Made by a program: the position numbers
Shown: positions 42,201 to 45,200 of the stretch, piece by piece
Position numbering within the stretch: the first letter of the stretch is position 1
Layout: each line of letters begins with the position of its first letter
From: Escherichia coli
GTDB taxonomy: Bacteria > Pseudomonadota > Gammaproteobacteria > Enterobacterales > Enterobacteriaceae
Strand: one strand, 5' to 3'
DNA: 64,000 nucleotides
Assembly (NCBI RefSeq): GCF_017348835.2
Contig: NZ_CP071375.1

Positions 42201-45200
42201 AGCTCGGTGCGCTCACGCGTTGAAAAAAGCGAAGCCAACGCGCAAGCCACCAATGCGGTTATTCCACCGGCCAGAATGCCTGATAACTGATTTAGCGATC
42301 AGTTTCGGTGATCCACAGCTGGCCACCTTCCATCCACGCCAGCCATTGACCATCCGGTGAGAAGACCACGGCATCCGCAGAAGGCGGATTGGCGTGGTTT
42401 TCGGTTAAATACTCAACCTCGCCACTTTGCGCATGGGCACAAGCAATTCGATTATCCAGCACAAAGCCCAACCATTCTCCTGACGGATGCCAGTTAAATG
42501 CAGACTGAATATCCGTTTTGTTATGGGTTAACTGGCGCGGCTCGCCGCCCTGTGGCGAGATAAGCCACAGTTGCACAATGCCGTTATCATCACGCATTAA
42601 AAACGCGATTTGCGTACCCTGCGGATTACAGCGCACCCAGTGGCGCGGGACGTTGACTAACCCCGGATAAGCCCGATGGTGGGTAAAGGTTAAACGTCGC
42701 TGCACGACGCCGCGCGGTGGCGCGGGCAGGGTGGTTTCCGTTCCACTTAACGGCGCATCACCTGCCGCTTTCCAGCCAGCTTCATCTTGCGGTAACTCAA
42801 CGATAAACAGCTCCGGCACTTTCTCGCCCTTTGGCGAAAGTGTGTCGCCAATAAATGCCAGCGCGTGATTTCCTACCCATCCTTCTTCATAAGCACGATT
42901 GATTTCATCACTGCCAGGCTGTGGCGTGGGCGTGGTTTTGCTCACCAGCACGCACCAGTGGCTACCGCTGTATTCACGCGGATGCTGCTTTTGTACGTTG
43001 ACCGGGCCAAACGGCGCAGCAACACCGACGTTTCGCAAATCCAGCGCCGGATCGAGTTCATGCATTACATGGTCGTTATAGGTAAAGCTCCCCATTTCAC
43101 CGTTCGGGCTAAAGACATGCACATGGCTGCCGCCGCGCAGCGCTCCAGGCGTATACGGCGCGGTAATATCCATTGCATCGAGATTGCTCACCTTGCCGCC
43201 TTCAGCAATGACTCCGCGTCGATGATGGAAATCGTAATGCCATGTTTCATCAGGATTTTCCGGGCCATGGATAAAAACATATTTCTCTGACTTCGGATGA
43301 ACGGTCACCACGCCGACGTGTGCGCCCTGTGACGCGCGATAGATAACCTCGACCTCGCCGGTATGGATATTCACACGCTCAATGGTCTCGCCGGTAAACG
43401 ACGCCCCAGAAGGACGCACGTCAAATACCAGCCACTGGCTGTCGGGCGTCCAGGTATTGGTATTGGTGAGCAGGTGATTACGGGGAGCAAAGGTTATCTG
43501 TTTCATGGCGCGGTCCTGATACAAAACGGTTCCCGCCATCATACTTCACAAGGACTTCACTTTCAGACAATAGTCTTTTGCCATCGTGATGAATGTGAGT
43601 GAAAAGATGGAACATTTCGACGTGGCGATTATTGGCCTCGGCCCGGCAGGTTCGGCGTTGGCGCGAAAATTAGCTGGCAAAATGCAGGTGATCGCGCTGG
43701 ATAAAAAGCACCAGCATGGTACTGAAGGTTTCAGCAAACCTTGTGGCGGTCTGCTGGCACCGGACGCGCAGCTATCTTTTATTCGCGATGGACTGACGCT
43801 TCCTGTCGATGTGATCGCCAACCCGCAGATTTTCAGCGTCAAAACCGTCGACGTCGCCGCGTCGCTCACGCGTAACTACCAGCGAAGCTATATCAATATT
43901 AATCGCCATGCTTTCGACTTGTGGATGAAATCGCTGATCCCCGCCAACGTTGAGGTTTATCACGACAGCCTGTGTCGAAAAATCTGGCGTGAGGATGATA
44001 AATGGCATGTCATTTTTCGTGCAGACGGTTGGGAGCAGCATATTACCGCCCGCTATCTGGTCGGTGCCGATGGTGCCAACTCGATGGTGCGGCGACATCT
44101 CTACCCGGATCATCAAATCCGTAAATATGTCGCTATCCAGCAGTGGTTCGCGGAGAAACATCCGGTGCCGTTCTACTCCTGCATCTTTGATAATGCGATA
44201 ACTGACTGTTATTCATGGAGTATCAGCAAAGACGGTTATTTTATCTTTGGCGGTGCTTATCCAATGAAAGACGGTCAGACGCGTTTCACGACGCTGAAAG
44301 AGAAAATGAGCGCCTTTCAGTTCCAGTTTGGTAAGGCGGTGAAAAGCGAAAAATGCACGGTGCTGTTTCCCTCACGCTGGCAGGATTTTGTCTGCGGTAA
44401 GGACAACGCCTTTCTGATTGGTGAAGCGGCGGGATTTATCAGCGCCAGTTCGCTGGAGGGGATTAGCTATGCGCTGGATAGCGCAGAGATTCTGCGTGCG
44501 GTGTTCCTGAAACAGCCGGAGAAGAGCAACGCCGCTTACTGGCGCGCCACCCGCAAACTGCGTTTAAAACTCTTCGGCAAGATAGTAAAAAGCCGATGCC
44601 TGACCGCACCGGCTTTAAGAAAGTGGATTATGCGCAGTGGTGTGGCACATATTTCGCATTAGCCAACGCGCTTCACATCGCCCACCAGCAGGATGTAAGA
44701 GAGCGCACCAATCAACGCGACGGTGGAGATATAAACCAGTGCCGGGGCGAAGCCATAGCCTTGCAACAGATATTAGTCCACAAAAAAACACCTCATAAGA
44801 AAAGGTCTTATATCGGGCAGAAATCTGAAAAGGGAGATCAGGCGCTAAACAGGAGGGAAAGAAGAGTATGCTTTCAACGGCTTAGCTACTCTTTTAAAGG
44901 ATTAATCATGAAGTTGAATTTTAAGGGATTTTTTAAGGCTGCCAGTTTATTCCCACTAGCACTGATGCTTTCAGGCTGTATCTCGTATGCTCTGGTTTCC
45001 CATACCGCAAAGGGTACTTCAGGAAAGTATCAATCGCAGTCAGACACCATCACGGGGCTATCGCAGGCAAAGGATAGTAATGGAACAAAAGGCTATGTTT
45101 TTGTAGGGGAATCGCTGGATTACCTTATCACAGATGGTGCTGATGACATCGTTAAGATGCTCAATGATCCAGCACTTAACCGGCACAATATTCAGGTTGC

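Follow-up and report, generated by a model that had tools for sequence, protein, structure and literature searches.

A 4,750-bp deletion of the D-galactonate (dgo) operon between cbrA and yidX in Escherichia coli, shared with O157:H7 and its relatives

In Escherichia coli K-12 MG1655, D-galactonate is catabolized through the DgoR-repressed dgoRKADT operon, which lies between cbrA and yidX in the order cbrA-dgoT-dgoD-dgoA-dgoK-dgoR-yidX, as the first-pass annotation of the sequence studied here had correctly stated, with the dgo genes on the strand opposite to cbrA and yidX. The dgo promoter falls within the 141 bp upstream of dgoR and is overlapped by two DgoR operators, IR1 and IR2; a 22-nt IR1 oligonucleotide has been published (ATATTGTTGTACTACAATTTAG; PMC12288454). 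The operon is not uniformly present in the species, since the same 2025 paper describes several E. coli isolates that lack the structural dgo genes or carry them as pseudogenes (PMC12288454). Loss-of-function mutations in dgoR are repeatedly selected in the mouse gut, where they de-repress the operon and raise galactonate use (PMC7064181). Across phylogroups, the growth yield on D-galactonic acid lactone was reported as 0.40 in group E versus 0.82-1.01 in groups A/B1, B2, and D (Sabarly et al., 2011; PMC3147056).

We analyzed a 64-kb stretch of E. coli DNA (hereafter, the window) in which cbrA is followed closely by yidX. E. coli PE164, isolated from a pig in Nanjing, matches the window at 99.996% identity over 49.9 kb, and its PGAP annotation served to place the start of cbrA. 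Intact cbrA, encoding the 351-aa colicin M resistance lipid reductase, occupies 43607..44662 on the plus strand; the PGAP start at 43607 lies inside a longest open reading frame beginning at 43586, and 337 of 349 residues are identical to K-12 over the aligned part. Intact yidX, a 218-aa lipoprotein gene of the K-12 type with an ATG start, occupies 44908..45564 on the same strand. The gap between the end of cbrA at 44662 and the start of yidX at 44908 measures 245 nt, in keeping with the initial estimate of about 250 bp. The 3' end of cbrA differs between strains: relative to K-12 and O157, the window lacks 9 bp (three codons) within 44650-44662, giving a C-terminus of ...AHISH* that is shorter than the K-12 end, and cbrA is annotated 36 nt longer in other strains, so the position of its stop codon is variable.

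To locate the junction, we aligned window positions 44400-45100 to the K-12 MG1655 locus (L001) by blastn, the alignment that the first-pass annotation had proposed as a check. Two collinear blocks were recovered. The left block ends at L001 position 7382, inside dgoT, and the right block picks up 136 nt before yidX, at 12133, so that the junction (7382|12133) falls at 44772..44773 of the window and the missing segment measures 4,750 bp. The deletion had originally been put at about 5 kb; the event stands and its size is corrected by the alignment. This placement carries an uncertainty of about 1-2 nt, which grows to as much as about 12 nt should the junction-adjacent Tyr-Leu-Leu codons not derive from dgoT. 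Relative to K-12, the missing segment comprises dgoT codons 1-408, all of dgoD, dgoA, dgoK, and dgoR, and the 141 bp upstream of dgoR that hold the promoter and both operators. The IR1 oligonucleotide maps to L001 12116-12137, with the breakpoint at 12132|12133 just outside the IR1 core; only its last 5 nt (TTTAG) can be matched across the junction, and the core repeats of both IR1 and IR2 are gone. To the right of the junction, 135 nt of yidX upstream sequence are retained (44773..44907, plus strand), which in K-12 form the distal portion of the dgoR-yidX intergenic region. Divergence of about 27% marks the first 45 nt or so of this flank, and the same stretch is also variable among dgo+ strains. 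Neither Rfam nor a promoter and terminator scan gave any relevant match at the junction.

To the left of the junction, the minus strand retains the 3' end of dgoT, consisting of its last 37 codons and the stop codon (K-12 DgoT residues 409-445; 44659..44772), as established by tblastn and translation. In a tblastn search of the whole 64-kb window, residues 409-445 matched 44772-44662 with 35 of 37 residues identical (E = 1.3e-14). The fragment had been described beforehand as a 36-residue transporter C-terminus preceded by an in-frame stop, with a mismatch to the dgoT 3' end named as the result that would count against it. Its identity as the end of DgoT is borne out by this match, and the preceding stop is present as TAA on the 5' side of the minus strand, formed by the first 3 nt of the right flank (TTA on the plus strand), which close the frame; only the length needed revision, to 37 codons between stops or 35 from the first TTG. 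As in K-12, cbrA overlaps the dgoT stop codon convergently by 4 nt.

DgoT homology is thus present at the locus, but a full-length open reading frame of about 430-445 aa with the MFS fold is absent, and we read these 37 codons as a pseudogene fragment that does not belong among the genes for DgoT, the ACS-family MFS D-galactonate transporter. In RefSeq, PGAP annotates the remnant of PE164, and likewise that of every carrier we inspected, as a pseudo 'hypothetical protein, missing N-terminus'. The amino acid changes in the remnant also differ by carrier (Ala to Thr in the window, Lys to Thr in O157, and Leu to Phe and Ala to Gly in Escherichia sp. E1V33), as expected for neutral decay. The 35-codon open reading frame that begins at the TTG (44659-44766, minus strand) does encode a hydrophobic helix, the last transmembrane segment of DgoT, and might on that ground yield a small membrane peptide that has acquired a new function. 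We consider this very improbable, because nonsynonymous differences pile up between carriers, PGAP treats the sequence as a pseudogene fragment, and no promoter-like site was found upstream on the minus strand within 44767-44907, the sole promoter-like match lying inside yidX. On its sequence, the dgoT remnant is better described as a decaying fragment without function.

The rest of the window offers no replacement for the lost genes. Apart from the DgoT tail, tblastn found no Dgo homologue in the 64 kb (the best other hits, at E = 0.006, were short chance matches), the other DgoT matches being distant MFS paralogues with about 21% identity, and blastn found no significant match to K-12 dgo DNA (two 15-nt chance matches only, E = 0.89). 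All of dgoR, dgoK, dgoA, dgoD, and the dgo promoter with IR1 and IR2 are therefore absent from the window. Together with the K-12 alignment, this upholds the original proposal that the dgo operon was deleted at this site, leaving only a 3' remnant of dgoT. The strain should accordingly be unable to take up or catabolize D-galactonate, a prediction that follows from its gene content, because the DgoT transporter, DgoD dehydratase, DgoK kinase, and DgoA aldolase are all missing. This predicted phenotype is in line, indirectly, with the published finding that phylogroup E grows less well than other groups on D-galactonic acid lactone (PMC3147056).

We next asked how widely the deletion occurs among 5,426 complete E. 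coli genomes. An 81-nt query spanning the junction was found at 95% identity or more in 405 of them, including EDL933, once per genome and always on the chromosome. Related counts were similar: cbrA and yidX are contiguous in 412 genomes, a junction-proximal 40-mer occurs in 413, and 404 of the 5,426 have no megablast match to the interior of the K-12 dgo segment. About 7.5% of complete E. coli genomes thus share the deletion. Most of the named carriers are O157:H7 (including EDL933), O55:H7, or O145 strains, serotypes that we take to belong to phylogroup E; the rest are isolates from pigs, chickens, vegetables, and humans. The junction is base-for-base identical in the window, O157 strain AR-0427, strain ESDR8, and Escherichia sp. 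E1V33.

This distribution supports the view that the deletion is a long-standing, lineage-wide allele of O157:H7 and its relatives rather than a peculiarity of the window strain, which would have inherited it as a member of the lineage that includes O157:H7, O55:H7, and O145. The loss is in this sense ordinary: hundreds of public genomes, O157:H7 reference strains among them, already show it, with the remnant marked as a pseudogene fragment. In the literature we searched, we found no explicit description of the dgo deletion junction in O157 or phylogroup E. The distribution also disposes of the idea that the operon is really present and was lost by misassembly or collapse, to which we give essentially no credence: the same junction occurs once per genome in 405-413 independent complete assemblies from many laboratories and platforms, and the deleted region contains no repeat that could collapse. 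Identical junctions in more than 400 independent complete assemblies exclude assembly error, and they speak equally against an intact dgo operon emerging from a corrected assembly, the outcome that the first-pass annotation had named as its refutation.

Some carriers nonetheless hold dgo-like sequence elsewhere. Because the 413 carriers and the 5,022 genomes with some dgo match add up to 5,435, more than the 5,426 genomes searched, at least nine carriers must have a dgo-like fragment at another site, such as on a plasmid. One such captured chromosomal piece lies on plasmid p2 of E. coli EC20 (L005 2576-3077), where the 5' end of dgoR and the dgoR-yidX intergenic region sit between an IS66-like element and IS911. 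Fragments of this kind account for the few plasmid matches to the sequence upstream of yidX; a 79-nt segment there that at first looked like a repeat family because of its plasmid matches was rejected as such, being a captured chromosomal fragment between IS elements.

The direction of change can be read from related genera. In Salmonella enterica, Klebsiella oxytoca, and Enterobacter ludwigii, dgoRKADT lies beside a homologue of the sugar phosphatase gene yidA, with yidR directly downstream of dgoT in K. oxytoca and E. ludwigii, and in Klebsiella pneumoniae it lies near yidQ and ibpAB. Since these outgroups keep the operon in this neighborhood, its presence is ancestral and its loss derived. 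The bare presence/absence polymorphism by itself would allow that other E. coli gained the operon by insertion at this site and that this lineage never had it, but the chance of this is vanishingly small: a 3' fragment of dgoT remains in the right place and orientation, overlapping the cbrA stop codon as in K-12, and other enterobacterial genera carry dgoRKADT at the syntenic site. In both K. oxytoca (L012) and E. ludwigii (L013), dgoRKADT lies directly between yidA and yidR, with neither yidX nor cbrA present, so cbrA and yidX, the dgo flanks in E. coli, appear to be additions on the Escherichia side of the locus.

The lesion itself bears few marks of how it arose. In the K-12 sequence from 7200 to 12400, no repeat family has copies at both 7382 and 12132 under a criterion of direct repeats of at least 8 nt, and microhomology at the junction is at most 1-2 nt. 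No IS end, transposase fragment, or mobile-element annotation was found at the junction in four carriers, and the junction bases all align to K-12 dgoT or to the dgoR-yidX intergenic sequence. IS-mediated deletion and deletion through direct repeats, by recombination or slippage, were therefore set aside. The absence of an IS or a direct repeat at the breakpoints points instead to one illegitimate, non-homologous recombination event, probably the mechanism of the deletion, which would have fused the 37-codon dgoT tail to the yidX upstream region and then been inherited. Taking the alignment, gene content, distribution, and synteny together, we hold with high confidence that dgoT codons 1-408, dgoD, dgoA, dgoK, dgoR, and the dgo promoter with its operators were all lost in one old deletion of 4,750 bp.

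One feature next to the junction does not fit the simplest form of this history. The junction-proximal end of the remnant (44743..44772, minus strand; about 30 nt, defined by alignment with dgo+ alleles) is a divergent patch. At 44752, 44755, 44758, 44761, 44765, 44766, and 44770 it differs from the dgo+ alleles of K-12, 536, NRZ14408, strain 142, and 19KM1831, which are identical to one another there, and at two further wobble positions in Pro and Ala codons (around 44743-44746) the window patch differs from K-12 and some dgo+ alleles. Compared with K-12, the window matches at only 24 of 33 bases in the patch but at 75 of 78 elsewhere in the remnant. Every carrier shows, over the final 22-30 nt of its remnant, a wobble change in nearly every codon together with one Ala-to-Leu codon, and a 40-mer search of complete E. 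coli genomes found the patch only in deletion carriers. Simple in-situ deletion of an ordinary E. coli dgoT does not account for it; the wobble pattern suggests descent from a functional but strongly divergent dgoT, although the position of the Ala-to-Leu codon is Ala (once Ser) in 120 DgoT homologues.

A search for the source of the patch returned no donor. Among 100,044 species representatives, the exact 20-mer CCATAGCCTTGCAACAGATA, which includes the odd Leu codon and could therefore miss an intact donor, had a single match, in Escherichia sp. E1V33, itself a deletion carrier. Of two metagenome scans for intact dgoT with the patch wobble states, the first gave no match and the second gave 23, all unrelated high-GC sequences without DgoT homology. 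In the dgoT genes of Salmonella, K. oxytoca, K. pneumoniae, and E. ludwigii, single wobble states recur without any match to the patch as a whole. Two divergent-looking DgoT cluster representatives proved to be ordinary E. coli alleles. In its ancestral form (O157, ESDR8, and E1V33), the patch matches the right-hand sequence at five of the seven differing positions by our count from the alignment. The two K-12 breakpoint sequences are nonetheless only about 31% alike, and we rejected the idea that the patch arose from them as a mosaic or heteroduplex.

A further question is whether the deletion allele, instead of originating in this lineage's own direct ancestor, was carried from one lineage to another by homologous recombination as a transferable 'loss allele', with a divergent Escherichia lineage as its possible source or intermediary. 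We regard this as possible but less likely than not to be the case, and in either event it refines our main explanation without changing the conclusion that the operon is deleted. In Escherichia sp. E1V33, a cryptic species that differs from E. coli by about 8%, the cbrA-remnant-yidX junction is identical (L010, NZ_RHJI01000002.1, 10547-10800); E1V33 is about 92% identical to the window over 9.4 kb and 96.5-99% identical across 44713-45112. Both divergent forms of yidX, that of the window and O157 and that of ESDR8, are found beside the junction, as are different cbrA 3' ends, which points to homologous recombination having shifted the allele or its flanks across lineages. At almost every wobble position the patch departs from each dgo+ E. 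coli allele that we compared, as if it came from a functional divergent dgoT. Set against these, no donor turned up among the 100,044 species representatives or in the two metagenome scans, the Ala-to-Leu codon at a position that is Ala (once Ser) in 120 homologues makes the patch something other than a simple functional foreign allele, and E1V33 looks more like the recipient of an E. coli-like tract than its source, with some 500 bp of such sequence apparently lying between flanks that diverge more. Two allelic types of yidX occur in E. coli (window 44908-45564 and L004 3518-4174), with 61% amino acid and about 65-70% nucleotide identity; the window, K-12, and O157 share one type, and ESDR8 and 19KM1831, and by annotation also 536, NRZ14408, and strain 142, have the other.

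A more specific version, in which the loss allele arose once on a dgoT as divergent as that of another genus and spread by short-tract homologous recombination across lineages and species within Escherichia, reaching E. coli of the phylogroup E type, strains with the alternative yidX, and the cryptic species E1V33, seems to us doubtful. Spread of that kind would mean that loss of D-galactonate catabolism was positively selected in some niche, for example in the gut of ruminants or pigs.

The window contains several other features outside the locus. An AT-rich island of about 3.5 kb lies between ilvN and uhpA at 24000-27500 (34-39% GC versus 51-59% in neighboring bins); in PE164 it holds two hypothetical ORFs of 160 and 479 aa, neither with a Pfam or PADLOC match, and the 479-aa ORF is broken in the window by a 1-nt deletion, compared with PE164, at about 24894. 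An accessory sugar-utilization cluster at about 12262-18464, between a uhpT-side DUF1198 gene and adeD, includes a carbohydrate porin, PTS IIA, IIB, and IIC components, a GH1 glycosidase, and a LacI-family regulator, with a truncated yicS adjoining. Adjoining nepI, at about 7475-8135, are a RelE/ParE toxin gene and an HTH partner gene. The inverse autotransporter gene iatC (1-5868) runs off the start of the window and carries 285-nt internal repeats with 81% identity. Mapped from the PE164 annotation, an IS200/IS605 element lies at about 33117-34854 between a 6-phospho-alpha-glucosidase gene and yidH; the tnpB (InsQ) of this element is intact, and its tnpA is a pseudogene interrupted by an internal stop. 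In the PE164 annotation, a glvC-like PTS transporter gene beside yidP (36217-37833) is intact, in contrast to K-12, where an internal stop makes it a pseudogene. Above the gathering score, Rfam matched istR (29757-29886, minus strand), AsdA, the antisense RNA of the dnaA mRNA (52609-52689, plus strand), a ROSE_2 thermoregulator upstream of ibpA (41646-41718, minus strand), and the ES036/CssrF sRNA (47090-47132, plus strand), all away from the junction.

The deletion would explain why a low D-galactonic acid lactone signal has been reported in phylogroup E, and its junction could serve as a lineage marker. No new kind of system is revealed. Among known loci, the closest is the cbrA-yidX region of O157:H7 (EDL933 and AR-0427) and O55:H7/O145, which has the same junction, the same 37-codon remnant, and the same yidX upstream region, with 100 nt around the junction identical base for base; the window differs by the 9-bp deletion at the 3' end of cbrA and about seven substitutions in the distal remnant and the end of cbrA, for about 95% identity over 701 nt overall. 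The dgoRKADT locus of K-12 has the same neighboring genes in the same orientation, and there too cbrA runs convergently into the dgoT stop with a 4-nt overlap, but that locus has 4,750 bp more, comprising the promoter with IR1 and IR2, dgoR, dgoK, dgoA, dgoD, and dgoT codons 1-408. Other E. coli have reached the same outcome, loss of D-galactonate use, through rare and independent lesions of different kinds: IS1 in dgoT in LH13-b (H91), an internal stop in dgoT in NRZ14408, and an IS91-associated loss in O141:H4 strain P13-6. The window allele, by comparison, carries no IS and is common to hundreds of genomes. The dgoR mutants selected in the mouse gut target the same operon through gut evolution (PMC7064181), but in the opposite direction: D-galactonate is a gut carbon source that other E. 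coli have been selected to use more, whereas the entire pathway is gone from the lineage related to O157:H7, this pig isolate included.
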